From IMG/VR virus record IMGVR_UViG_3300020724_000005: a stretch of DNA of 64,000 bases; one strand, given 5' to 3'. The translations under genes and the position numbers were made by a program. Source of the DNA: a virus. The notes beneath the pieces are model-generated. The model was not told the origin of the DNA and searched no databases. It saw only the letters and a program-made list of their open reading frames with translations. Position 1 is the stretch's first letter, and every line of letters begins with the position of its first letter. This document shows, piece by piece, positions 3,596-57,258 of this stretch.

Positions 3596-4505
3596 ATTTC
3601 GTAACTTTTGATTAATAATATTTTAATTTCACCCCTTTTTGTAAGTCTTTCCACACTTTGGATACACTACATTTATTTTGTCTAGAATATTCTGCTAAAG
3701 AACAGAAAACTAACCCTGATTCAATTTCTATTATTTTTTTACTTTTTTTAGGATGATTTTTAAGTGCATTACTTAATTTAAGTTTTACATCTTTTGAAGT
3801 AGTCTTTCCATACATCGGATTTTTTTCTCCTTTTCTATTATCACTTAATGTTTTTCTACTTTTTTTATCCATGTAATGTTTTCCTTTATTATTAATCGAT
3901 ATTTTAATTTTATGTTCTTCAGATAAAGATTTTGTTTTTATTCCAAAATTCCAAGGAATATTACCTTTTAGAGATTCTCTTATTTTATTTTTAATATCGT
4001 CTGATATTTTTTTATTTTTATGTATTTTAGAGTTGCTTTTACAAAATTCAATTTTTAATCTTTCATAAACCCGACTAGATACTTTATATTCAACTATAGA
4101 TTTTTTTCTTCTTTTATTACTCATTGCCCATGATATGTATTTTATTTTTTTATTTCTGGGGTATATTTCACAGAGTAAAAGATGACATAAAAAATGTTCT
4201 CCTGCTGTTAGCGGTATTATATTTTCATCATTCCAATTTGAACTTTTACCTTTTCCTCCTAAGCATTTTGGAATAATATGATGTCCTTCATAATAACCTC
4301 CATTCTTTTTATGTAATTTTCTTTGTTCTAGTTCAGATTTTGCTCTTTGACAGATTTGATTATATATCTTATAGTAATTCATAAAAAAATAGGCCGAAGA
4401 TAAAAGAGTTCTAGTCCAACTCAAAAATCAAACGGCCAATAAATTCATATTTATAATAGCTAGGACTAGTAGTATTATCTACTATAAATATTAGTCTTTT
4501 GAAAT
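3596..4505 (-). mobile_element. free-standing homing-endonuclease island
   Basis: visibly more AT-rich than both flanks; carries only the HNH gene; flanked by ~80 nt AT-rich non-coding DNA. Confidence 0.45.
3612..4382 (-). CDS. HNH homing endonuclease with NUMOD3-like repeats
   Basis: GHHIIPKCLGGKG...NIIPLTAGEHFLCH HNH motif; repeated GxxxxxxGKxxSEEHKxKIS-type NUMOD3 units; start set to MNYYKIY. Confidence 0.8.
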   Translation of the reverse strand: MNYYKIYNQICQRAKSELEQRKLHKKNGGYYEGHHIIPKCLGGKGKSSNWNDENIIPLTAGEHFLCHLLLCEIYPRNKKIKYISWAMSNKRRKKSIVEYKVSSRVYERLKIEFCKSNSKIHKNKKISDDIKNKIRESLKGNIPWNFGIKTKSLSEEHKIKISINNKGKHYMDKKSRKTLSDNRKGEKNPMYGKTTSKDVKLKLSNALKNHPKKSKKIIEIESGLVFCSLAEYSRQNKCSVSKVWKDLQKGVKLKYY

Positions 4506-9312: not shown

Positions 9313-9625
9313 AATCGTATTAGCAACTCTTACTGGATGTAAGTCTTGCCAAGGACTTAAAGAACTTTTAAATGCAAATCAAATAAAATTTGTAGAAGTT
9401 CCGTGTGATAAAGATCCTGGAATGTGTGACCAGCTTGAAAAGATAACTGGAAAGTCACACTATCCTATGGCAGTAATAAAGGACTTGACTAAAAACTTAG
9501 ACTACATATATTTCACAAGTTTTGATTATAATGAATTAGGAAAAGAAAGAATTGTTGATGAAAAAGTTAGAGCTGTCCCGTTCTTTTCCCAGGAAGAAAT
9601 ACTAAAAAAGATAAAAAATATATGA
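9299..9625 (+). CDS. glutaredoxin/NrdH-like redoxin
   Basis: start set to MTRYKIVLATLTGCKSCQGLKELL; CxxC after beta1, YPMAV later. Confidence 0.55.
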   Translation: MTRYKIVLATLTGCKSCQGLKELLNANQIKFVEVPCDKDPGMCDQLEKITGKSHYPMAVIKDLTKNLDYIYFTSFDYNELGKERIVDEKVRAVPFFSQEEILKKIKNI

Positions 9626-10269
9626 TGAAACAACTTACAGAGCAGAAGCTAATAGACAATGTCGCAAAGTTCTATGATCTGATAAATAAATATCTTCCAG
9701 ATAATTCAAGAACAAAGAAGCTGATTAAATTCTATGAAGGAATAGAAGTCACTTTGACCACATCGCCAGCATCTACAAAAATACACCACCACAACTGCTT
9801 CATAGGAGGATACGTAGATCATGTTATTAGAGTCACAGAAGCTGCACTGGTAATGGACAAGGTTTGGGATAAATTTGGTGCTGCAAAAAACCATACAACT
9901 GAAGAACTTGTGTTTTCTGCTATAAATCATGATCTTGGGAAGCTTGGTACGAACTCAGATCCATACTATTTACCACAACCGTCAGAGTGGCACCAAAAGA
10001 ACCAAGGGAAGTATTTTACTTACAATCCAAAGGTAACTCACATGAAGATAGCAGATAGAAGCCTGTTTTACCTTCAGCAAGCAGGCATACAAGTATCTGA
10101 AAATGAATACATTGCAATAAAAATACATGACGGACTTTTTGAATCTGGAAATGAATCATATCTAATAACAAGTTCTCCAGACTTACAACTGAAAAGCCAC
10201 CTTCCTTGCATATTGCACCAAGCTGATCTGATGGCATCCAGAGTAGAAAACGACGTAAACAAAGCATAA
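9622..10269 (+). CDS. HD-domain phosphohydrolase
   Basis: HVIRV...INHDLGK...KIHDG...HQADLMAS spacing typical of HD superfamily. Confidence 0.7.
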   Translation: MMKQLTEQKLIDNVAKFYDLINKYLPDNSRTKKLIKFYEGIEVTLTTSPASTKIHHHNCFIGGYVDHVIRVTEAALVMDKVWDKFGAAKNHTTEELVFSAINHDLGKLGTNSDPYYLPQPSEWHQKNQGKYFTYNPKVTHMKIADRSLFYLQQAGIQVSENEYIAIKIHDGLFESGNESYLITSSPDLQLKSHLPCILHQADLMASRVENDVNKA

Positions 10270-10270
10270 T

Positions 10271-10543
10271 ATGATAGAAGTAATTTCAATAGCAATTTGG
10301 CCGCTCACAATCATCGGATATGTGATCTGGAATCTATACAACAAGAACGTTAGACTAGAAAAGATGCTCAAAAAGGAAGACGAATTTGTGAGAAAAGTTT
10401 TATCTTTGGCCGATAACATAGACAAGACAGCCGCAAAGATAGATGCAACTATGTGGGTGTCAGCTGATCAAGAGCTCAAGACGATGTTTGAAGACATCAA
10501 GACTATGCAAGAGAGCATAAAACAATTCACAGGTAAACTATGA
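10271..10543 (+). CDS. hypothetical membrane/coiled-coil protein
   Basis: N-terminal TM helix, 90 aa, ATGA-type coupling to neighbours. Confidence 0.5.
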   Translation: MIEVISIAIWPLTIIGYVIWNLYNKNVRLEKMLKKEDEFVRKVLSLADNIDKTAAKIDATMWVSADQELKTMFEDIKTMQESIKQFTGKL

Positions 10544-11280
10544 GCATGGCAGAAGAAGTTTTACTGACAAAGAAAGGGAATCCTAGAAAGAGAAAGCCAA
10601 AGTCAAAGATAGATTACTTCACTTTAGAGACACAGGATGCGATACTTAGGTACAGAGAGAGTCACAGCCAAGACGAAAGAAACAGGATATACAACGCTGA
10701 GATCCACAATGCTTTATACAAATTAGCCGAGAACATAATCCACACTTTCAAGTTTTATCACACTGAGGTTGAGAATTTGGAAGATCTAAAGTATGAAGTG
10801 ATCTCTTTCATGCTCCAAAAGCTGCATCTGTACGATACTACTAAAGGAAAGGCGTATTCTTATTTTGGCACTATAGCAAAAAGGTATCTCATAGCATACT
10901 GCCAGAGAAACTACAACAAGCTTGTAGAAAAGAAGTCTATAGATAACGTAGACAATGATGAAATGACAATAGACAGCTTGGTAATGACGCCTGGAAACGG
11001 TGAACTTAACAGGCTTGAGGTGATAGACGAGCTCATCCAGCACATAGAACTCAACATGTTCAATATGTTTGAGAAAGAAGATGAGATAAAAGCAGCAGAT
11101 GCTGTAGTTGAGATCTTGAGAAGGTCAGATACGATAGACATCTCAAACAAAAAAGTGCTCTACATCTACGTAAAGGAGATAGCGAACGTAAAATCTACAG
11201 CTATAACCCATGTGATAAACCGAATGAAAGTCATCTATAAAGGAATACTCAACAGAAAAATAGAAAACGAGGATTACTAA
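10540..11280 (+). CDS. gp55-like late sigma factor (putative)
   Basis: region-2-like layout; KAYSYFGTIAKRYLIAY resembles T4 gp55 NPHAYITQACFNAFV block; sits directly upstream of structural module. Confidence 0.5.
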   Translation: MSMAEEVLLTKKGNPRKRKPKSKIDYFTLETQDAILRYRESHSQDERNRIYNAEIHNALYKLAENIIHTFKFYHTEVENLEDLKYEVISFMLQKLHLYDTTKGKAYSYFGTIAKRYLIAYCQRNYNKLVEKKSIDNVDNDEMTIDSLVMTPGNGELNRLEVIDELIQHIELNMFNMFEKEDEIKAADAVVEILRRSDTIDISNKKVLYIYVKEIANVKSTAITHVINRMKVIYKGILNRKIENEDY

Positions 11281-27736: not shown

Positions 27737-28033
27737 ATGCCTCTAGCCGCAACCACAATGTCGTTCCAAGCAGAATCTACAATATATCAAGTAGAGGTGA
27801 GGTGTCATGTCAATGAGAATGAGTTCAATTACACCACAAACCCATCAGCTGTAAAATCAGGATCTTTGGGTCAACTGAACAACAGTGTGACTGGATCGGA
27901 TTTCAATCCTTTTGCCACTACGATAGGTCTGTATAATGCGCAGAACGAGCTGTTGGTAGTAGGCAAGTTCGGCACTCCATATCCCATCCCAAGAAACACA
28001 GACGTAACTTTTGTTGTAAAATACGATACATGA
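27737..28033 (+). CDS. small tail-fibre-related protein
   Basis: ATTIGLYNAQNELLVVGKFGTPYPIP paralogous to C-term of 25245..26303. Confidence 0.55.
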   Translation: MPLAATTMSFQAESTIYQVEVRCHVNENEFNYTTNPSAVKSGSLGQLNNSVTGSDFNPFATTIGLYNAQNELLVVGKFGTPYPIPRNTDVTFVVKYDT

Positions 28034-28470
28034 TGAAATGGTTATTAAAGAATGAAGAGATAACAGGCGTAGAGCAATTCCCAGCAGGCGCAGTGGGATT
28101 TGTGTATAAGATCACAAACAACGCAACTGGCAAGTTTTACATCGGAAAGAAGATCCTCGAGAATAAGACAAAAAAGCTTCTCACTAAAAAGGAACAGTCT
28201 GAATGGACCAAACCAGGACGTATCCCAAAAAAGAAGATAGTGATTAAAGAAAGCAACTGGGCAGATTACTGGGGGAGCTGTAAACCGCTGTTAGAAGACG
28301 TAAAGACCGTAGGAAAAGACGGCTTCAAAAGAGAGATCTTGATCGTGTGTTTCAACAAAAAAAGTTTGAGCTACTGGGAGACTTACCACCAGTTTGAATA
28401 CAAAGTCCTCCATGTAGATAGTTACAACGAAAACGTGCTTGGAAAATACTTCAGAAAAGACACGCAGTAG
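28030..28470 (+). CDS. GIY-YIG family nuclease (seg-like)
   Basis: GFVYKITNNATGKFYIGKK (GIY-x10-YIG), later FKREIL; ATGA overlap; interrupts structural genes. Confidence 0.55.
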   Translation: MMKWLLKNEEITGVEQFPAGAVGFVYKITNNATGKFYIGKKILENKTKKLLTKKEQSEWTKPGRIPKKKIVIKESNWADYWGSCKPLLEDVKTVGKDGFKREILIVCFNKKSLSYWETYHQFEYKVLHVDSYNENVLGKYFRKDTQ

Positions 28471-36908: not shown

Positions 36909-37343
36909 TTATTCATTCCTGAGTTCTTTTTGTGTTTGTATCTTGATGTCTCTTTCCTTTATCGCCTCCTTCTTGTCGTACAACCGCTTTCCTTTGGCTA
37001 TCGCCACCTTTAGCTTTATCTTGCCGTCCAGATCGAATATCTCCAACGGTACAAGCGTCACTCCACGCTCTGTGAGGTTCTTGGCTATGTTCTGGATCTC
37101 CTTTCGGTTGAGCAATAGTTTCTTATCTCTGAGCTCCTCGTGGTCCCTGGATGAGTTCTTAAGACGTCCTATGTGCATTCCTTTGATGTAGGCTTCACCG
37201 TCTGAAACGTAAGCAAAGCTCTCTGATATGCTCGCATCGTTGTTTCTGATCGACCTGACCTCAGAACCGAAAAGCTGGATGCCGGCTGTGTATTCCCTGA
37301 GGATGTGGTACTCGTATCTCGCTTTTCGGTTCGTGATCTTCAT
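36909..37343 (-). CDS. smpB: SsrA-binding protein SmpB
   Basis: NRKARYEYHI, GSEVRSIR, AYIKGMHI, RDKKLLLNRKEI, RGVTLVPL, KVAIAKGKRLYDKKEAIKERD match SmpB along whole length; start set to MKITNRK. Confidence 0.9.
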   Translation of the reverse strand: MKITNRKARYEYHILREYTAGIQLFGSEVRSIRNNDASISESFAYVSDGEAYIKGMHIGRLKNSSRDHEELRDKKLLLNRKEIQNIAKNLTERGVTLVPLEIFDLDGKIKLKVAIAKGKRLYDKKEAIKERDIKIQTQKELRNE

Positions 37344-37345
37344 GT

Positions 37346-37657
37346 CTAGTATGTTTTTCCTGTGGTATCGACTCCTATGAACTCGTCTAACGTTTTCAGG
37401 TCTGGCTTCATAGAACCTGGCTCTTTTGAATAGTCCCAAACCTTTCCTGTCGAGTCTGCGATGGTTATCTTTCCTCTTGTGAAGTCGAAGATCTGCTTCT
37501 CTGTCAGCAATCCTACCGTCTTATTGAGTCTGTCTTTTATCTTGAATCCTGGTTGGGACTTGATCCCGTTTCCGGTGTGCTCAGTCATAGTTGTCTTGAT
37601 TGCCATCAGTATCATGCCCTCTGAGTTCAGTAGTTCTATCGTGTCTTTGTTCTTCAT
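37346..37657 (-). CDS. hypothetical protein
   Basis: 103-aa ORF, stop 2 nt before smpB ATG. Confidence 0.55.
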   Translation of the reverse strand: MKNKDTIELLNSEGMILMAIKTTMTEHTGNGIKSQPGFKIKDRLNKTVGLLTEKQIFDFTRGKITIADSTGKVWDYSKEPGSMKPDLKTLDEFIGVDTTGKTY

Positions 37658-39407: not shown

Positions 39408-40103
39408 CTATGTAAATTCGATCTCGTTCGTCTGACTGTCCCAGATGAAGCTTATAGGTTTGTTACTGTATTTGTAGTCCTCTCCCAAGACAGACGCGTT
39501 GAAGTAGTGAGTGTCCCCATCAAAGCGGTAACCGTGTCCGGAATGTATGTGGCCGCAGACGTGTATCTTGGGCTTAACGCTCTTGATCCTCTGTGCAAGC
39601 ATCTCGCATCCTAAATTATCGTAAAGGCCGATGACCTTATCCAAAACTCCGTGTGCAGGACCATGGGTGATCAATATGTCTGTGTTCTCTGGGATCATCA
39701 GCCACTTCTCCCACATTTCGGGTGAGTTTCTTGGAAGATTAAATGCCCAGTTGTAGAACTCAGGCTGCCAAGGTGAGCCCCATATTTTAAGCATCTGCTG
39801 ATAACCTTCTCCTACGCAAAGAAGATCATCTTGTAAATAGACAATATTCTTGTAAAAGTCTAAGATCTCTTTTGTCTTCTCAACGTTGTCTTGGAATCCC
39901 CAATCATGGTTGCCTGCGATGAATACCTTATGATCATACGTGGCTAGCTTATTGTACCATCCACAGAATTCACGAATCTCATGCTCATATCCCATCGAAG
40001 ATATATCGCCAGCATGGATTAATATATCCCCACCAGGAAGATCTTCAGTGATCTGCTTATGCTTAGTGTGAGTATCAGATATGAGCGTAATCTTGTATTT
40101 CAT
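39408..40103 (-). CDS. calcineurin-like metallophosphoesterase
   Basis: ISDTH, HAGDIS, GNHD, THGP, CGHIH motifs in order. Confidence 0.8.
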   Translation of the reverse strand: MKYKITLISDTHTKHKQITEDLPGGDILIHAGDISSMGYEHEIREFCGWYNKLATYDHKVFIAGNHDWGFQDNVEKTKEILDFYKNIVYLQDDLLCVGEGYQQMLKIWGSPWQPEFYNWAFNLPRNSPEMWEKWLMIPENTDILITHGPAHGVLDKVIGLYDNLGCEMLAQRIKSVKPKIHVCGHIHSGHGYRFDGDTHYFNASVLGEDYKYSNKPISFIWDSQTNEIEFT

Positions 40104-40967: not shown

Positions 40968-41072
40968 TTCGTTTTTCTTTTTGTTTGGTTAGTACTCCCA
41001 AGCGGTGCCGACCCGCCTTCTCCACCGTGAAAGGGTGGCGATCTAGCCAACGTGATCTATAGGAGCAATGTC

Positions 41073-41252
41073 TTATGCTAGGTAATATCCTGTGAAGCTT
41101 GGTTCCAACGCCCTCGCAAGGTTTTTAGCCTCTGACTCGATCACTGCTCCTGCCTTCGTGTATCCTTGCCAAAGAGGTGATGGTGTTATAGACCTCAGAA
41201 CGATCTTGTTTGGATTACCTTCTTCTTTTCTGAAAATTACTATCTTTCTCAT
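41073..41252 (-). CDS. hypothetical protein
   Basis: start set to MRKIVIFRKEEG; track N-extension reads through tRNA-Met. Confidence 0.5.
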   Translation of the reverse strand: MRKIVIFRKEEGNPNKIVLRSITPSPLWQGYTKAGAVIESEAKNLARALEPSFTGYYLA

Positions 41253-41281
41253 TATTTTTTGATTGAAACCTGTTAATTTGG

Positions 41282-41353
41282 TTGCGCCAGTGGGATTCGA
41301 ACCCACGACCCCCGGGTTATGAGCCCGATAAGCTACCGCTGCTCTACAGCGCA
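41282..41353 (-). tRNA. tRNA-Met (CAT)
   Basis: hand-folded cloverleaf, loop CTCATAA, T-arm GTGGG-TTCGAAT-CCCAC; three G:C pairs next to loop (initiator-like). Confidence 0.85.
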
Positions 41354-41516
41354 ATATAATTTTAAAAACGATCGTGGGTTGTCAACATCTTTCTTGTTGT
41401 CATCAGCCCCTTTTTCGCCGATCATTTTTATTTGATTGCTATATTATAAAAGTATTGAAACTTCTTTAACTTTTGCAATCTTTGTTTTGAGTGATCAGAT
41501 ATTTTATTCTCTGATC

Positions 41517-41913
41517 TGGTGTGGAACATGAGGGATTCGAACCCTCGTCCAAACAATGTTATCTAAGTAATTCTTTCACAAGCTTAGTGGATTTTTCTAA
41601 AAACACAAAATATGAAGTTTGATGTATGTGGGAAACCAACTTCTAAACAACCTGGTCTTGGAATTATTTTATAAGGGCTCCAACCTGCGACCCTCTCATT
41701 TGCACTTCTGTTTCTAGGCACGTGTGCACCGGCCCAAGGACTTAGGCGGCCATCTCTAGCTCACCTTCGGCGAACGCCATAGCGTCTTCGAATGTCCATG
41801 TAGAAAGCTCTACGTTTGCATTTGTGTTTTGATAGTCAGATTTAAGTGCGTCCGATCTAGCACTGCTTGCATCATCTCAAAGAGCTCTATCGCTGTCAAA
41901 ACCAGTATGCCCC
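41517..41913 (-). ncRNA. ssrA: tmRNA (SsrA)
   Basis: 5' GGGGCATACTGGTTTTGACAGCG; 3' GGACGAGGGTTCGAATCCCTCATGTTCCA; acceptor GGGGCAT/ATGTTCC with G3-U70; tag frame GCA(41819)...GCCGCCTAA(41742). Confidence 0.8.
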
Positions 41914-43929: not shown

Positions 43930-43948
43930 GTTTTTTTGTTTTATCCTG

Positions 43949-44030
43949 TGCTCCAAGTGGGATTCGAACCCACACGTCTTACGACCACAGATCCTAAGTC
44001 TGTGCTGTCTACCAATTTCATCATCGGAGC
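43949..44030 (-). tRNA. tRNA-Leu (TAG)
   Basis: class II, loop CTTAGGA, long variable arm, T-arm GTGGG-TTCGAAT-CCCAC. Confidence 0.85.
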
Positions 44031-44224
44031 ATTTTACCACGTTTCATATCATCGTAGTTACTTCTGAGGTATCTAGACTGATACGGAATATGATTTAGTC
44101 TTCTTTTATAATTATCCCATTTTGCAATCGTTAGTAACAGTATCATCGCGCTTGTCGATACCACGCAAGCGGCAACGATGATCCATGCAAATACCTTATT
44201 ATCATGGTAGTGTTTGTGTGGCAT
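44021..44224 (-). CDS. hypothetical membrane protein
   Basis: 67 aa, one TM; last 10 nt overlap 5' end of tRNA-Leu. Confidence 0.45.
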   Translation of the reverse strand: MPHKHYHDNKVFAWIIVAACVVSTSAMILLLTIAKWDNYKRRLNHIPYQSRYLRSNYDDMKRGKMLR

Positions 44225-44233
44225 AGTTCATTT

Positions 44234-44353
44234 TTAGTTTTTATGTTCGCATGATTCGCAATATTCAGATCTTCGAGCATCATATTCCAGTCCGCATTTT
44301 TTACATATCATCCAGATCTCGTGGTTGAAAATCTTTATCAGTCTACTTATCAT
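44234..44353 (-). CDS. 39-aa zinc-ribbon peptide
   Basis: MISRLIKIFNHEIWMICKKCGLEYDARRSEYCESCEHKN; ATGA overlap with upstream stop. Confidence 0.35.
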   Translation of the reverse strand: MISRLIKIFNHEIWMICKKCGLEYDARRSEYCESCEHKN

Positions 44354-44520
44354 ATCAGTTTTATTTGAAACCTATCTTTCATCTTCTCCAGACTATCAAA
44401 GTCCCGAGTCCTGTCCAAGTTACCATTCCATGAAGTGACTCCTCGACAGATGTTCTTGTGGTTTATGTGTGTGTCAGAGGTGAAGAACATGTCTTGACCT
44501 TCTTTTAGTGTGATCTTCAT
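44350..44520 (-). pseudogene. N-terminal fragment of a metallophosphoesterase-like gene
   Basis: MKITLKEGQDMFFTSDTHINHKNICRG... has motif I only, ends after 56 aa. Confidence 0.35.
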
Positions 44521-44542
44521 TGCATTGTGTATTTTTATGCTG

Positions 44543-44616
44543 TGACTCGGATTGGATTCGAACCAATGACCCCCAGCTTAGAAGGCTGGTGCTCTATCCA
44601 GCTGAGCTACCGAGCC
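44543..44616 (-). tRNA. tRNA-Arg (TCT)
   Basis: canonical fold, loop CTTCTAA. Confidence 0.9.
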
Positions 44617-44622
44617 AAAATA

Positions 44623-44853
44623 TTAGTCTGTCCACTCTACGACCTCGTACTCTGTCTTTGTGAACGAGAGATATGGTGCCGAGGTGACTGGATCTTTTGA
44701 GTCTTTTATGTACTTTGGATTCGTGATGTATACTATCTTCGAATCATCTCCTTGCTCCCTTTCCTGTATTTTGCAAGGGATCGGGGTATCTGGAAGTTTG
44801 TATAATGTCTTCTCTGATCCTGGTTTGATCTTTATTGTCTTTGGTTGTTTCAT
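44623..44853 (-). CDS. hypothetical protein
   Basis: start set to MKQPKTIKIKPG; track extension overlaps tRNA-Thr. Confidence 0.5.
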   Translation of the reverse strand: MKQPKTIKIKPGSEKTLYKLPDTPIPCKIQEREQGDDSKIVYITNPKYIKDSKDPVTSAPYLSFTKTEYEVVEWTD

Positions 44854-44868
44854 TACTTTGATTTTTAG

Positions 44869-44940
44869 AGGACACACCCGGAACCGACCCAGGGACTCAT
44901 GCTTACAAGGCAAGTGTTTTTCCAGTTAAACTACGCGTCC
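44869..44940 (-). tRNA. tRNA-Thr (TGT)
   Basis: loop CTTGTAA; unusual T-loop GTCGGTT; one U-U in anticodon stem. Confidence 0.75.
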
Positions 44941-45104
44941 AAAATGAAGCTTTTAGATTATCCCCAGAGCTTCTCAACTGTGCTGGCATACGTTTTGGCT
45001 GCTCTGAATGAGCTCTCTTCCTCCAGAGGTTTAGTGGCGGGTAGTGTAGCTATACACCTTAACCAGACTTTCCTATCTTCGATCCCTTGGCCTTCGGGCT
45101 TTCG

Positions 45105-45179
45105 TGTACCATACAGGGTTTGAACCTGTGACCTACGGCTATAGGAGGCCGGCGCTCTAACCAACTGAGCTAATGGTAC
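45105..45179 (-). tRNA. atypical tRNA, 8-nt anticodon loop (Arg-CCT-like)
   Basis: good acceptor, D and T arms (ACAGG-TTCAAAC-CCTGT); anticodon stem CGGC/GCCG encloses CTCCTATA. Confidence 0.55.
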
Positions 45180-45186
45180 AAAAATG

Positions 45187-45258
45187 CGGTCCATGACGGT
45201 TTCGATCCGTCTACTCTGCATCGACAGTGCAGTATGATAGCCACTTCACCAAAAGACC
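45187..45258 (-). tRNA. tRNA-Asp (GTC)
   Basis: loop CTGTCGA; T-loop ATCGAAA (A at position 54). Confidence 0.85.
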
Positions 45259-45263
45259 AATTG

Positions 45264-45349
45264 CACGGGTTAAGGGATTTGCACCACCTTACAGTCATCA
45301 TACTTCTTGGCTGCGCTACCAAGTGTGCTTCTCTATACACCAAACCCGT
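45264..45349 (-). tRNA. tRNA-like element, class-II shape, anticodon undetermined
   Basis: perfect 7-bp acceptor ACGGGTT/AACCCGT, T-loop-like TGCAAAT, extra arm AGT..ACT, but central arm CTTGG-TAGCGCAG-CCAAG has 8-nt loop lacking U33 context. Confidence 0.35.
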
Positions 45350-45360
45350 ATTTTTTACTG

Positions 45361-45405
45361 TATTATAAAAGTACTAAAAGATCTTGACAATTATCAAACT
45401 ATCTT
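45361..45405 (-). promoter_or_regulatory. internal promoter of tRNA array (class I box)
   Basis: minus sense TTTG-N21-TACTTTTATAAT ending ~12 nt before element 45349. Confidence 0.4.
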
Positions 45406-45410
45406 TTTAG

Positions 45411-45486
45411 TGGCGGGTATAGTAGGGATCGAACCTACGACCAACAGATTAACAGCCTGCTGCGCTACCAACTGCGCTATATACCC
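45411..45486 (-). tRNA. tRNA-Asn (GTT)
   Basis: loop CTGTTAA; CCA encoded. Confidence 0.9.
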
Positions 45487-45495
45487 AAATTTATG

Positions 45496-45568
45496 TGGAA
45501 CTATCAAGACTCGAACTTGAATTACCTACGTATCAGGCAGGCGTGCTAAACCATTCTACTATAGTTCC
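45496..45568 (-). tRNA. tRNA-Ile (GAT)
   Basis: loop CTGATAC, perfect T-arm; weak D-stem. Confidence 0.8.
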
Positions 45569-45573
45569 ATGTG

Positions 45574-45658
45574 CGGAAGATGGAGGTAACGATCCCCCTT
45601 GGGTTTTATCCCAGCCATAGCTTAGCAAGCCAGCCGATTACCTTTCTCGCAATCTTCC
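45574..45658 (-). tRNA. tRNA-Ser (GCT)
   Basis: class II, loop TTGCTAA, T-loop ATCGTTA. Confidence 0.8.
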
Positions 45659-45663
45659 TTTTG

Positions 45664-45735
45664 GGGTCTAGCCCGGTATCGAACCGAGTTATCATGCTCC
45701 ACAAACATGCGCTTCACCTTAAAGCTTCAAGACCC
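45664..45735 (-). tRNA. tRNA-His (GTG)
   Basis: loop TTGTGGA; extra 5' G(-1) opposite C73. Confidence 0.85.
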
Positions 45736-45738
45736 ATA

Positions 45739-45828
45739 TGGCGGAAGAGGCAGGACTCGAACCTACACACCGAGCAAACGATACCGGTTTTCAAGACCGG
45801 GGCGATACCAATTACGCTTTACCCTTCC
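45739..45828 (-). tRNA. tRNA-Ser (TGA)
   Basis: class II, stem CCGGT/ACCGG, loop CTTGAAA; CCA encoded. Confidence 0.85.
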
Positions 45829-45830
45829 AA

Positions 45831-45908
45831 AATAACCACTACCTATCGGACGTCATCTTTAACCTTTTGGGATCCTAACCTCTCGGTCTCTAAAGGCTTG
45901 TGGTTATT
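45831..45908 (-). other. unassigned 78-nt element filling a tRNA-sized slot
   Basis: 9-bp terminal inverted repeat AATAACCAC/GTGGTTATT; no cloverleaf found on either strand. Confidence 0.2.
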
Positions 45909-45909
45909 G

Positions 45910-45981
45910 TAGTCGCTGATGGGATCGAACCACCATCTTCGGGACCAAAACCCGACGTGTTAGCCTTTATACTAAGCGACT
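45910..45981 (-). tRNA. tRNA-Gln (TTG)
   Basis: loop TTTTGGT, perfect acceptor AGTCGCT/AGCGACT. Confidence 0.85.
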
Positions 45982-45987
45982 ATGAGG

Positions 45988-46058
45988 AGCAGATACCCGG
46001 AATCGAACCGAGGCCTCCTACTTGGAAGGAAGGAGTACTACCACTATACGATATCTGC
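45988..46058 (-). tRNA. tRNA-Gly (TCC)
   Basis: loop CTTCCAA. Confidence 0.85.
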
Positions 46059-46064
46059 TTAAAG

Positions 46065-46136
46065 TAGTCCCTGTGAATTACGATATCACAACCTCTTGGA
46101 TGTAAGCCAAGTGCTCTCCCGTTGAGCTAAGGGACT
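46065..46136 (-). tRNA. tRNA-Val (TAC)
   Basis: loop CTTACAT, T-loop ATCGTAA. Confidence 0.85.
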
Positions 46137-46243
46137 AAGTATATTATTATTCGACTTTACTCACTTATAAACCTAAAACATTTGCAACTGAATTAGGTAT
46201 TTGTCAATTTATTCTGTTCTTAGCTGTGAGACTAATAATATTG

Positions 46244-46316
46244 TGGACCGTTCCAGATTCGAACCGGAGACTCCTGCGTGCAAGGCAAGTGTGTTAGCCA
46301 ACTATACCAACAGCCC
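46244..46316 (-). tRNA. tRNA-Ala (TGC)
   Basis: loop CTTGCAC; G3-U70 present. Confidence 0.9.
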
Positions 46317-46322
46317 ATTGTG

Positions 46323-46395
46323 TCTAGATGAAAGGTGACGATCCTTCCTAGTCTTGCTCCCAAAGCAAGTGCCTCACCAACTCGGCCACATCTAG
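46323..46395 (-). tRNA. tRNA-Pro (TGG)
   Basis: loop TTTGGGA; C1-G72; T-loop ATCGTCA. Confidence 0.85.
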
Positions 46396-46429
46396 ATATT
46401 TACTTTCCAATATGTCAAAGATCACACTG

Positions 46430-46501
46430 AGGTCGATATAGGACTCAAACCCATGTGGCAGGTTTTGCAGACCTGCGCCTAAATCACTCGGCCAATCGAC
46501 C
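46430..46501 (-). tRNA. tRNA-Cys (GCA)
   Basis: loop CTGCAAA; discriminator U73. Confidence 0.9.
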
Positions 46502-46507
46502 TTACTG

Positions 46508-46580
46508 TACCCTCAAAGAGATTCGAACTCCTATCTCCTGGTCCGTAGCCAGACGTTCTGATCCTTTGAACTACAAGGGC
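46508..46580 (-). tRNA. tRNA-Arg (ACG)
   Basis: loop CTACGGA. Confidence 0.85.
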
Positions 46581-46586
46581 ATTCTG

Positions 46587-46659
46587 CGCGCACGTAGGGA
46601 CTCGAACCCTCATCTTTGGTTTTGGAGACCAATACTCTAGCCAATTGAGCTACGCACGC
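46587..46659 (-). tRNA. tRNA-Trp (CCA)
   Basis: loop CTCCAAA. Confidence 0.85.
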
Positions 46660-46667
46660 ATTTTATA

Positions 46668-47051
46668 TTATAGATCCTTTATGAACTCACTCACAAGCCT
46701 TTTGTTCTCTGACTCGTCTCCGTCGTATCCTCCTGTGCTGAATACTGACCCTTCACGATCTCTGTATTTGAGAGAAGATACTGATGAGGACTCTAACTGC
46801 AACTGACCTTCGAATCCGTAGCAAGAACAGTGTGATCCGTGTATTTCAAATAGCCCCCCTGACGTCTTGTCTCTCAGAAGGAAGAACGATCTCGAATCGC
46901 ATCCCCAAGAACCTATAGACTCATAAGCTATGAGGACTTCTTTATTTTCAAGATCCGATCCGTCACCTTCTCCGTATTCCTGTGTGAGACGCTCTATGAT
47001 CTCGAATTCTGTCTTGCCTTGAAGATCTCCTAAAGTTAGTACGCTTGTCAT
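46668..47051 (-). CDS. hypothetical protein
   Basis: 127 aa; GSWGCDSRSFFLL...HGSHCSCYGFEGQ. Confidence 0.6.
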   Translation of the reverse strand: MTSVLTLGDLQGKTEFEIIERLTQEYGEGDGSDLENKEVLIAYESIGSWGCDSRSFFLLRDKTSGGLFEIHGSHCSCYGFEGQLQLESSSVSSLKYRDREGSVFSTGGYDGDESENKRLVSEFIKDL

Positions 47052-47052
47052 A

Positions 47053-47298
47053 TTATCTGTATTTTCTTATGAGTTTAAAAAGCTCTCGTATGTCTGTGAA
47101 TTTCAATGTTTGTCCTGGCTTTATAGGAATGAACGCTATCGTAAATCCGTGGTTGCCGCAAAAGTAGTCTTCCTTCTTTATCCTGTTACCGTTCACGCTA
47201 TCAACATATATCCAAGGAAAATTGCCTGCGAGTTTTACTTCTATCCCGAGTCGTTTCATCCTGTCTATGAATACCGTCAATATGTCTCTCTGCTTCAT
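47053..47298 (-). CDS. hypothetical protein
   Basis: 81-aa ORF. Confidence 0.55.
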   Translation of the reverse strand: MKQRDILTVFIDRMKRLGIEVKLAGNFPWIYVDSVNGNRIKKEDYFCGNHGFTIAFIPIKPGQTLKFTDIRELFKLIRKYR

Positions 47299-47383
47299 TT
47301 CCTATTGCTGTTTGGTATGTTATAAAAGTAAACAAAATAATCGACATTTTAAAGCTTTTTGACGTACATTTGTTTTTTTACTG
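47299..47383 (-). promoter_or_regulatory. intergenic cassette C1
   Basis: sense box TACTTTTATAAC; opposite strand TCGACA(47341)-N18-TACATTTG(47365-47372). Confidence 0.5.
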
Positions 47384-47457
47384 TGCGCCCGGTAGGGTTC
47401 GAACCTACGACCCCCTGGTTAAAAGCCAGGTGCATCTACCAACTGAGCTACGAGCGC
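47384..47457 (-). tRNA. tRNA-Lys (TTT)
   Basis: stem CCTGG/CCAGG, loop CTTTTAA; imperfect D-stem. Confidence 0.85.
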
Positions 47458-47527
47458 ATTCTTTGAAGTTTGCCACCCGTGTTTCAGAGCAGCGCTATCG
47501 TTTTCGTTTCATTTTCGTGTTTTTGTG

Positions 47528-47599
47528 TGGTAATGAGGAATTCCGAGATCCTGCCTACGGTGCTTCAAACCGCCGCTCTGCCATCTGAGCTACATTACC
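47528..47599 (-). tRNA. tRNA-Phe (GAA)
   Basis: loop TTGAAGC; unusual T-loop CTCGGAA. Confidence 0.8.
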
Positions 47600-48407: not shown

Positions 48408-48899
48408 TTAGTCCTGAGTGACCGTATATTTTTTTCCTAGCTTTGTTATGGCCTCTACTGCCTCGTGCAGCTCGATCCTGAAGAACTCCCTGTTGTTGGC
48501 CACCCTGTACGAGTCCAAGTACTGGTGGATCTCTTCTTCTAAGAACTGGGCCTCATGACATTTGAAGCTGTACTCGACTTTGAAAGGAGACGCTACACCT
48601 GTCGCGTTCGATATCTGGTAGGCTCTCTCCTCAGGCGTGTTCTTCGTGTACCCTATCTTCAAGAGCCCTGGCATAGTTGGGTTTGAGAGCACGTATATCC
48701 AATACCTGCCTTCTCGACCTGGACCTTGGAACGCCTTCTTCCTGGCTGTGTAGTACTTGACCTCGTCCCACTGCCTGCCGTCTTCTCCTACTGGAAGAGG
48801 GGTCAAAGTATAATACTCCACAGGGTAGCCAAGCAAGTCATCCTCCTTTGAGATGTAGGAATCTGCCTCTTCTGTTGTTATACGTTGTATCTTTATCAT
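48408..48899 (-). CDS. T5orf172/MUG113 (GIY-YIG superfamily) domain protein
   Basis: YWIYVLSNPTMPGLLKIGYTKNTPEERAYQIS...PFKVEYSF...EEEIHQYL...REFF. Confidence 0.65.
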   Translation of the reverse strand: MIKIQRITTEEADSYISKEDDLLGYPVEYYTLTPLPVGEDGRQWDEVKYYTARKKAFQGPGREGRYWIYVLSNPTMPGLLKIGYTKNTPEERAYQISNATGVASPFKVEYSFKCHEAQFLEEEIHQYLDSYRVANNREFFRIELHEAVEAITKLGKKYTVTQD

Positions 48900-56718: not shown

Positions 56719-57258
56719 TTATCCTAATAGCCAGCTCAGCTTTCTTCTAGACTCAGCAACGTGCCATTTGACTGTGTTCTCTACCGTGTCTAGCATGTCT
56801 CCGATCTCGCTGTACTTGTAGCCGATAGCAGCAAGCCTCATGACCTTCTCAGAAGACCTTGGCAGCAGAGACATTGCGGTCTCAAACTGCTTGGCTGCCT
56901 CTGACCTTCCTGCTTCATTGTAGGCCACAGACCTGTACATGCTCTTGATCTCTGCAAGCACTGACCTGTCGTTGGACACATCTCTTCTTTTGATGGCCTT
57001 GGCTGTAGTTATCGCGTTGTTCTTGATCACTGTCCTCATCCAGCCCTCGAACGATCCTATGCCTTGGTATGACTGTATCTTCTGGAACACCTTCAAGAAC
57101 CCATCGTTGATCACCTCTTCAAGGTCTCTGCTGTCTTTGAAGTACTTATAGAGCATGCGATGCATGCCTGGATAGTAGTGCTTATACACCTCTTCTTGGC
57201 ATTTCCTGTCGTTCTCTCTGCATCCGGCTATGAGCTCGTGTATCTGTGTGTGGTCCAT
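56719..57258 (-). CDS. ECF-type sigma-70 family factor
   Basis: region 2 (DLEEVINDGFLKVFQKIQSY..FEGWMRTVIKNNAI) and region 4 HTH (YKYSEIGDMLDTVENTVKWHVAESRRKL). Confidence 0.75.
   Translation of the reverse strand: MDHTQIHELIAGCRENDRKCQEEVYKHYYPGMHRMLYKYFKDSRDLEEVINDGFLKVFQKIQSYQGIGSFEGWMRTVIKNNAITTAKAIKRRDVSNDRSVLAEIKSMYRSVAYNEAGRSEAAKQFETAMSLLPRSSEKVMRLAAIGYKYSEIGDMLDTVENTVKWHVAESRRKLSWLLG

Follow-up and report, generated by a model that had tools for sequence, protein, structure and literature searches.

What does a phage gain from carrying its own SmpB, the SsrA-binding protein, and if it also carries a transfer-messenger RNA (tmRNA), do the two work together? The role of phage tmRNAs, which occur in about 2% of phage genomes, is an open question, and every role proposed for them is speculative (PMC9004378). 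We addressed it in 64,000 nucleotides of viral DNA (IMG/VR record IMGVR_UViG_3300020724_000005; this whole stretch is the window in what follows), for which a preliminary description made from the letters alone had proposed a 144-residue SmpB at 36909-37343 with six motifs, a tmRNA at 41.5-41.9 kb about 4 kb away, and a phage carrying both dedicated components of trans-translation. Both genes are what they were taken for and are intact, they lie among phage-type genes and are retained together in diverged relatives, and purifying selection acts on SmpB, on the tag peptide encoded by the tmRNA and on the acceptor stem of the tmRNA. By analogy with bacteria, the pair probably forms an active trans-translation module of the phage that works by the ordinary bacterial mechanism, with the phage SmpB serving the phage tmRNA. 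The features concerned are:

36909..37343 including the stop codon, minus strand: smpB, gene of the 144-residue SsrA-binding protein (open reading frame, Pfam, NCBIfam, PDB sequence matches, AlphaFold2 model, ratio of nonsynonymous to synonymous substitutions, dN/dS)
41519..41913, minus strand: ssrA, gene of a one-piece tmRNA (ARAGORN, Rfam RF00023, acceptor-stem covariation, 3' end sequence)
41742..41819, minus strand: tag reading frame within the tmRNA (ARAGORN coding part 95-172 of the gene, codon-level conservation)

The smpB reading frame runs from an ATG at 37343 to a TAA stop codon at 36909-36911 on the minus strand, and all six motifs are present in it (NRKARYEY at residues 5-12, GSEVRSIR at 26-33, HI at 57-58, RDKKLLLNRKEI at 72-83, GVTLVPL at 94-100 and KGKRLYDKKEAIKERD at 117-132). 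Its product matches the Pfam profile PF01668 over positions 2-142 of 143 with 159.3 bits (cut-off 27, E = 7e-47), passes the NCBIfam equivalogs NF003843 (158.6, cut-off 130) and TIGR00086 (149, cut-off 119) and finds 15 distinct SmpB sequences in the PDB, the best at 2.6e-33. In PHROGs it falls into phrog_6791, which is annotated as 'unknown function', so this resource of phage protein families has given it no name. The AlphaFold2 model, built on a 54-sequence alignment, has a mean predicted local distance difference test score (pLDDT) of 85.7, with 91-95 across most of the core, and predicts a β-barrel core with a C-terminal helix at residues 124-143. When this model was compared with the PDB by Foldseek, the top 21 matches were SmpB throughout, with TM-scores up to 0.88 and a root-mean-square deviation of 1.0 Å to SmpB of T. 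maritima. The model thus has the SmpB fold, in which three helices accompany an antiparallel β-barrel. A longer reading frame starting from TTG at 37439 (176 residues) was rejected because it overlaps the upstream gene and the extension is absent from the homologues, all of which start at the position of M-K/N/H-I-T/Q-N-R-K-A.

The C-terminal tail, on which the preliminary description had made the identification depend in part, and the residues conserved in the family are kept. In the 54-sequence alignment the window protein has the consensus residue at all 12 invariant columns and at 17 of the 18 near-invariant ones, the sole departure being the conservative K30R. Its tail, KGKRLYDKKEAIKERDIKIQTQKELRNE, aligns up to the last residues of E. 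coli SmpB, with KGKRLYDKKEAIKERDIKIQTQKELRN standing opposite the final 27 letters of that protein; the G-K…D-K-K motif is present, and G118, K119, D123 and K124 are invariant or near-invariant in the alignment. Over the helix 124-143 the pLDDT is lower, as one would expect if the tail has no fixed structure away from the ribosome. In SmpB a basic tail of this kind, about 25 residues long with a helix-forming stretch after the motif, is needed for accommodation and tagging. The window protein is thus a full-length SmpB with an intact C-terminal tail. Within the window clade, dN/dS of SmpB is 0.04-0.19 where computable (nonsynonymous differences, pN, 0.05-0.20; synonymous differences, pS, saturated at 0.6-0.9), and strong purifying selection acts on the protein.

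As had been proposed, the window also holds a tmRNA. It is complete and in one piece and lies 4,175 nt upstream of the SmpB start, with both genes on the minus strand. ARAGORN delimits it at 41521-41913 and Rfam at 41519-41913, where RF00023 is matched with 69.6 bits (gathering score 47) over model positions 1-374 of 374. The acceptor stem GGGGCAU/AUGUUCC has 7 bp, the G3:U70 pair and an A as discriminator. In the tag reading frame the resume codon GCA is followed by 25 codons encoding ANVELSTWTFEDAMAFAEGELEMAA, which ends in EMAA, and by a TAA stop. CCA is not encoded in the window tmRNA, whose 3' end reads …AUGUUCC-A-CAC-CAG and is followed by the hairpin AGAUCAGA…UCUGAUC (both within 41480-41535, minus strand); among 60 unique tmRNAs of the same family it is encoded in 26, including that of the related contig L004.

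The window pair recurs in relatives. SmpB is 83% identical in L004 and 67% identical in L003/L012, which are contigs of 136-158 kb, and the order of cREC/RNaseH-like genes, tmRNA, tRNA-Met, tRNA-Glu, metallophosphatase, SmpB and UvdE is kept in all of these. The tags of L003/L012 and L004, AKVELSTWTVEDALAFVDGEYAVAA and ANVELSTWTFDDAMAFAEGEFAMAA, are closely related to the window tag. Judged from these contigs, tmRNA and SmpB are retained together across the window lineage, down to 67% SmpB identity. About 80 nt are inserted in the 5' part of the L003 tmRNA (~4235-4320; also in L012 and L145), raising its length to 475 nt compared with about 390 nt, and its tRNA-like domain and tag are unaffected.

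In a sister lineage (L021, L022 and L023), whose SmpB is 57-59% identical and whose contigs are collinear with window 0.5-17.7 kb, smpB is inserted at another place, between homologues of window 9643-10242 and 10289-10543, which corresponds to window ~10243-10289; the window genes whose homologues flank it are 9622-10269 (phosphohydrolase-like) and 10540-11280. The sister genes and the reading frame that precedes smpB in the window are:

L021 10001-10423, L022 189-611 and L023 4453-4872: smpB of the sister lineage, at a locus unlike that of the window
37346..37657, minus strand: open reading frame of 103 residues and unassigned function, with its TAG stop 2 nt before the smpB ATG

The short distance between the 103-residue frame, which has no Pfam match, and smpB indicates that these two genes are probably co-transcribed or translationally coupled. 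Window 37.4-47.8 kb, which covers the tRNA array, the tmRNA and the 103-residue frame, is matched collinearly by three further contigs of the sister lineage (L097, L123 and L176); a homologue of this frame is present in L123 and L176, and no smpB follows it in the L097, L123 and L176 contigs. An SmpB contig and a tmRNA contig of the sister lineage come from the same sample in two cases (3300021142 and 3300020733). The sister phage therefore probably carries both genes, about 27 kb apart, which suggests that SmpB survived a change of place in the genome and that no operon links it to the tmRNA.

The window tmRNA is homologous over its whole length to those of L003, L004 and the more remote L067, and all four belong to a family that we delimited by a degenerate DNA pattern for VELST[W/M]T[F/V][E/D]D. 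Among viral sequences, 89 IMG/VR contigs (up to 271 kb long) contain the pattern, often near arrays of 12-25 tRNAs; one of these matches fell in a protein-coding gene and is spurious. A search of 185,579 species genomes of bacteria and archaea (596 Gb) gave no match, and a literature search for the tag strings found none. The consensus tag has about 25 residues, [A/D](N)VELST[W/M]TF[E/D]D[A/V]M[A/S]F…A[V/I/L/M]AA (loci L088-L176 and window 41742-41819). The acceptor stem is paired at 7 of 7 positions in all 60 unique tmRNAs, with G1:C, G2:C and G3:U invariant, compensatory changes in pairs 4-7, ten distinct stems, and the discriminator A in 59. Among 40 unique versions of 23 codons, the tag has a pN/pS of 0.28, and of 0.35 when only the 12 codons not covered by the search pattern are counted. 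No version departs from V, E, L, S, T, T, D, F or the final A, the changes at many codons are all synonymous, 39 versions finish in A-A, and the canonical end A-[V/M/L/I]-A-A is kept. This pattern of codon variation argues that the tag is selected as a peptide and not only as RNA. In some family members the apparent resume codon is GAC (Asp) instead of GCA. SmpB was seen on one of 80 tag-family loci (L162), a count that gives no usable frequency since the stretches are only 1-14 kb long, and only two contig names are common to the tag-family and SmpB lists.

The phage SmpB itself has no close cellular relative among the matches listed, of which the best cellular ones, including Blattabacterium, Chloroherpetonaceae, Crocinitomicaceae and Brumimicrobium, are 40-49% identical, none of those sampled exceeding 49%. 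In trees of 165 sequences of this 144-residue protein, the cellular ones drawn from the matches listed, computed by neighbour joining only with 35 bootstrap replicates, the window clade was recovered in 34 of the 35, and the phylogeny placed the window SmpB within a larger clade without cellular sequences. This virus-only clade has 47-50 members in the full trees and a median of 47 across the bootstraps (range 14-63), and it includes the megaphages LR756502 and LR745206 as well as L067. The virus-only clade and the low cellular identity argue that smpB has long resided in large phages and been exchanged between them, and not that it was recently captured from a host.

The surroundings of the pair are those of a phage. 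Genes of phage type flank smpB and ssrA on both sides over at least 60 kb, and the window encodes a baseplate wedge protein, a DNA primase, an SbcC-like nuclease, UvdE, a glucosaminidase, a guanylate kinase, a SegE-type GIY-YIG protein, a sigma-like factor, a DUF932 protein, a T5orf172 protein and homing endonucleases. The exact window SmpB occurs in 81 blocks of the metagenome collections, on contigs up to 50-200 kb, and the window has its relatives among the viral contigs of IMG/VR, the longest related ones measuring 136-158 kb. A 20-kb stretch (megablast) and the tmRNA (blastn), searched against 50,697 GenBank phages, gave only short matches to tRNAs and the tRNA-like domain, so neither the window phage nor its tmRNA family is in that collection. 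The closest cultured backbone is that of Flavobacterium phage vB_FspM_immuto (Immutovirus, 160 kb), a distant relative whose baseplate wedge protein is 47% and whose primase is 38% identical, and which shares with the window the layout from phosphohydrolase to baseplate to tail fibre and the DUF932 and T5orf172 genes. By gene content and synteny the window is phage DNA, a distant relative of the 160-kb immuto myophages. Among the 40 best of the 68 SmpB matches in the GenBank phage records, immuto does not appear, its whole genome not having been scanned. The kinship with immuto, the prominence of Flavobacteriales among the best cellular SmpB matches and the lack of a Shine-Dalgarno sequence ahead of smpB suggest a host in the Bacteroidota, probably Flavobacterium-like bacteria.

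If the phage module is active, which we infer by analogy as we do the fate of the tagged proteins, it would work as follows. The phage tmRNA would be charged by the host alanyl-tRNA synthetase by virtue of the G3:U70 acceptor stem. The phage SmpB would bind the tRNA-like domain and supply the missing mimic of an anticodon stem, its C-terminal tail acting as a mimic of mRNA, and EF-Tu would carry both to ribosomes halted by broken or non-stop mRNAs, which should be plentiful when the mRNA of an infected cell is being degraded. Translation would resume on the tmRNA, appending Ala and the 25-residue phage-specific tag ending in -AA, the ribosome would be freed for the synthesis of phage proteins, and the tagged fragment would presumably be passed to host proteases. 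In this scheme the phage SmpB would bind the phage tmRNA rather than, or besides, the host tmRNA. The phage may thus have no need of the host SmpB and tmRNA, as the preliminary description had it; the system would still need the host alanyl-tRNA synthetase, EF-Tu, ribosomes, RNA-processing enzymes, proteases and, since CCA is not encoded in the window tmRNA, a CCA-adding enzyme.

Several observations weigh against a dedicated pair of this kind. Within ±10 kb of SmpB, a tmRNA was found in only 4 of 80 SmpB-bearing IMG/VR loci (L012, L059/L061 and L067), and none was found within ±20 kb of SmpB in LR745206, Lak-A1, LR756501 and LR756504. In LR756502, complete at 642 kb, which has 46 tRNAs and, of the GenBank SmpBs, the one nearest to the window protein (52.6% identical), ARAGORN found no tmRNA over the whole genome and Rfam none over the 140 tRNA-richest kb of the 642. 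The probable distance of about 27 kb between smpB and the tmRNA region in the sister lineage would mean that there is no operon-like coupling. The pseudoknot regions PK1-PK4 of the window tmRNA fall within the Rfam alignment with low posterior probability and many non-canonical pairs, PK2-PK4 aligning to the model at low posterior probability. Trp147 of E. coli SmpB, which matters for accommodation in E. coli, is replaced by Ile133 in the window protein; this last point is weak counter-evidence, because the column is variable (A, M, D, F, V or L in further bacterial and phage SmpBs) and does not define the family.

The wider census gives these counts their background. SmpB matches occur in 68 of the 50,697 GenBank phage records, which include five 'uncultured phage' genomes of 630-735 kb, 15 Lak megaphage records and likely host-derived sequences, and in IMG/VR a relative of SmpB is carried by at least 289 contigs, of which many measure 300-600 kb. 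A 2012 census of RefSeq had found smpB in no virus; tmRNAs occur in about 2.3% of phage genomes. Huge phages have been reported to encode tmRNAs and SmpB (Al-Shayeb et al. 2020, PMC7162821); 'SsrA-binding protein' is annotated in eight phage GenBank files of the supplement to that paper, a ninth file containing 'SSRA' was discounted as a chance string inside a protein translation, and 'tmRNA' was not found in the part of the supplementary files searched. SmpB in the megaphages named above is often a few kb from large tRNA arrays. The pairing is thus the exception: some phages have SmpB alone, presumably with the tmRNA of the host, many have a tmRNA alone and few lineages have both, so that carriage of SmpB and carriage of tmRNA are only partly overlapping traits of phages.

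One explanation to be weighed is that the phage SmpB chiefly serves the host tmRNA by boosting, stabilising or capturing it, its co-occurrence with a phage tmRNA being incidental in a tRNA-rich island. The SmpB-only phages make this credible (LR756502 genome-wide, the other four within ±20 kb), tmRNA-only phages, crAss-like ones included, are common compared with the 68 SmpB records, and the SmpB of the sister lineage changed its locus independently of the tmRNA. Yet both genes are co-retained across the window clade and probably in the sister lineage too, and in other phages (L067 and L059/L061) SmpB and tmRNA are directly adjacent; in L067, whose SmpB is 53% identical, the tmRNA starts 10 nt past the SmpB stop codon. 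We consider a chief role with the host tmRNA unlikely, while noting that it overlaps with the module proposed here, as no sequence feature argues against the phage SmpB binding both RNAs. The possibility of a host smpB-ssrA pair at the edge of a prophage or in a mis-binned bacterial contig deserves attention because several GenBank 'phage' SmpB records, StauST398-5 and MT835488 among them, look like artefacts of host DNA; the flanking phage-type genes, the recurrence of the arrangement on many independent contigs, the distance from the cellular SmpBs listed and the restriction of the tag to viruses nevertheless make such an artefact highly improbable here.

Two further explanations start from what the tag and the island might do for the phage. 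The pair could be a device of counter-defence or host takeover that clears ribosomes stalled by RNA-cleaving immunity, for which anticodon nucleases, toxin RNases and CRISPR-associated RNases are candidates, or whose tag redirects proteins to the benefit of the phage; it would then be more than added housekeeping capacity. It would fit an island of translation and RNA repair with about 20 tRNAs and a metallophosphatase, joined in relatives by an RNA ligase and an AAA_33 kinase, and the length of the tag, its conservation as a peptide and its absence from cellular genomes point to a particular binding partner. This context is, however, all that the idea draws on, no defence or anti-defence gene having been identified; since parts that bind adaptors are conserved in bacterial tags as well, conservation of the tag need not mean a non-canonical fate, and the tag end A-[V/M/L/I]-A-A is like canonical degrons. 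We regard such a device as quite unlikely. Only tentatively do we entertain a phage-private system, in which a phage-only family of tmRNAs with tags of about 25 residues would co-evolve with an SmpB of an old virus-only lineage and the tag, more than a mere copy of the host degron, would engage a specific partner such as an adaptor, a protease or a phage factor. If it existed, ribosome rescue after host mRNA decay or RNA-cleaving defences would be coupled to a phage-controlled fate of the tagged proteins.

The proposed module can be compared with the known systems. With the bacterial SmpB and tmRNA of E. coli, Thermus thermophilus and Mycobacterium (PDB 7ac7, 4v8q, 5zey and 2czj) it shares the protein family, the β-barrel and the basic tail, along with a one-piece tmRNA, G3:U70, the resume codon GCA and a tag ending in -AA. 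It differs in being encoded by a phage, in an SmpB at most 49% identical to the bacterial ones among the matches listed, in Ile in place of Trp147, in the unencoded CCA and in its tag of 25 residues. The E. coli tag has 10 encoded residues, ANDENYALAA. The SmpBs of huge and Lak phages (Al-Shayeb et al. 2020, PMC7162821) also lie near tRNA arrays and group with the window SmpB in the virus-only clade, at 35-53% identity; in contrast to these megaphages of more than 500 kb, the window lineage has contigs of about 158 kb at most and its immuto kin 160 kb, and a tmRNA is co-retained a few kb away. That paper devotes one sentence to the topic, leaving the pairing and the tags unanalysed.

Phages with a tmRNA and without SmpB include the mycobacteriophage Bxz1 group, Bacillus phage G, crAss-like phages and the OM43 phage Melnitz, which has a two-piece tmRNA. 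Their ssrA often lies beside tRNAs, as in the window; they must use the SmpB of the host, whereas that of the window phage is encoded in its own genome. Over the 39 nt at its 3' end, the window tmRNA is 97% identical to a crAss-like phage tmRNA. Mycobacteriophage DS6A carries only a tRNA-like domain, which was proposed to be an inhibitor titrating SmpB (Hudson et al. 2014, PMC4131195), while the window has a full tmRNA, with a tag reading frame under selection at the peptide level, and a full SmpB. Phage-encoded SmpB and phage-encoded tmRNA have each been reported before, and the basic fact is not new. What this analysis adds is a phage lineage of about 150 kb that has kept both partners, with an SmpB of a virus-only clade and a long, virus-only tag conserved as a peptide; neither the partly overlapping carriage of SmpB and tmRNA nor the virus-restricted tag family was found in the literature searched. 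SmpB appears to have had a long independent history inside large phages, its basic mechanism being expected to be the ordinary bacterial one. The presence of SmpB and tmRNA in one lineage makes a self-contained, transplantable two-gene system whose distinctive tag should be detectable by mass spectrometry, and the pair with its conserved tag is therefore an experimentally tractable handle on the purpose of phage tmRNAs.

Among the other phage loci, L059 (10001-11300) and L061 (3545-4844) represent an independent lineage with an SmpB 50% identical to that of the window and a tmRNA about 0.5 kb off on the opposite strand, with an unusually long tag, GNILDKMSAIGLIRAEEVVVA. In StauST398-5, a Staphylococcus phage, smpB lies at 46-462 of the record, and its status as a phage gene is doubtful. 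The same applies to MT835488 ('UNVERIFIED: Bacteriophage sp.', L274 19600-20488), where a tmRNA 119 nt past SmpB encodes the ordinary tag ANDNKLAYAA and the DNA is probably cellular. Several SmpB matches in 'phages' of Staphylococcus, Listeria, Klebsiella and E. coli resemble host genes at the edges of the records. In LR756502.1, a GOLLD RNA (RF02032, 275 bits, gathering score 150) was found at about 434.7 kb (L264 47185-47591), immediately before a tRNA, and L006 has a marginal tRNA-Sec-like match at 28302-28388 (48.2 versus 47).

Around the pair, the window has the following translation-related and mobile genes:

40992..41353, minus strand: tRNA-Glu(UUC) and tRNA-Met(CAU), next to the tmRNA on its downstream side; relatives keep the order tmRNA, Met, Glu
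43948..47599, minus strand: some 18 tRNA genes in an array that lies upstream of the tmRNA, in one translation-gene island with it (ARAGORN and Rfam)
39408..40103, minus strand: metallophosphatase gene (PF00149) between tmRNA and smpB, by synteny a conserved neighbour in L001, L003 and L004
3612-4424, minus strand: homing-endonuclease-type gene, phrog_655
~28030-28470, plus strand: homing-endonuclease-type gene, SegE-like GIY-YIG
48408-48899, minus strand: homing-endonuclease-type gene, T5orf172

In relatives (L003 8853-9980; L004 8171-9307 and 185-601), smpB is preceded, at a distance of 0-1 genes, by an RNA ligase gene (PF09414), and genes of an AAA_33 P-loop kinase, a metallophosphatase and a helicase stand upstream of the tmRNA. 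These surroundings look like an RNA-repair neighbourhood; the ligase homologue present in L003 and L004 is absent from the corresponding place in the window. The tRNA at 45104-45179 (minus strand, Rfam 61 bits) has an anticodon loop of 8 nt, CUCCUAUA, in which ARAGORN reads the 4-base anticodon CCUA. This tRNA, the gene of which is also found in L001, could be a UAG(G)-reading suppressor or of frameshift type. Recoding of a stop codon is unsupported, as reading TAG, TGA or TAA as sense raises the coverage by open reading frames about equally and all three end long frames. The tRNA at 47528-47599 (minus strand) scores 49.5 bits in Rfam and is not called by ARAGORN even at a relaxed threshold. 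The three homing-endonuclease-type genes could contribute to gene relocation. Lastly, a sigma-70-like protein is encoded among small genes at 56719-57258 on the minus strand, with a match to region 2 (E = 3e-13) and a weak helix-turn-helix of GerE/LuxR type.

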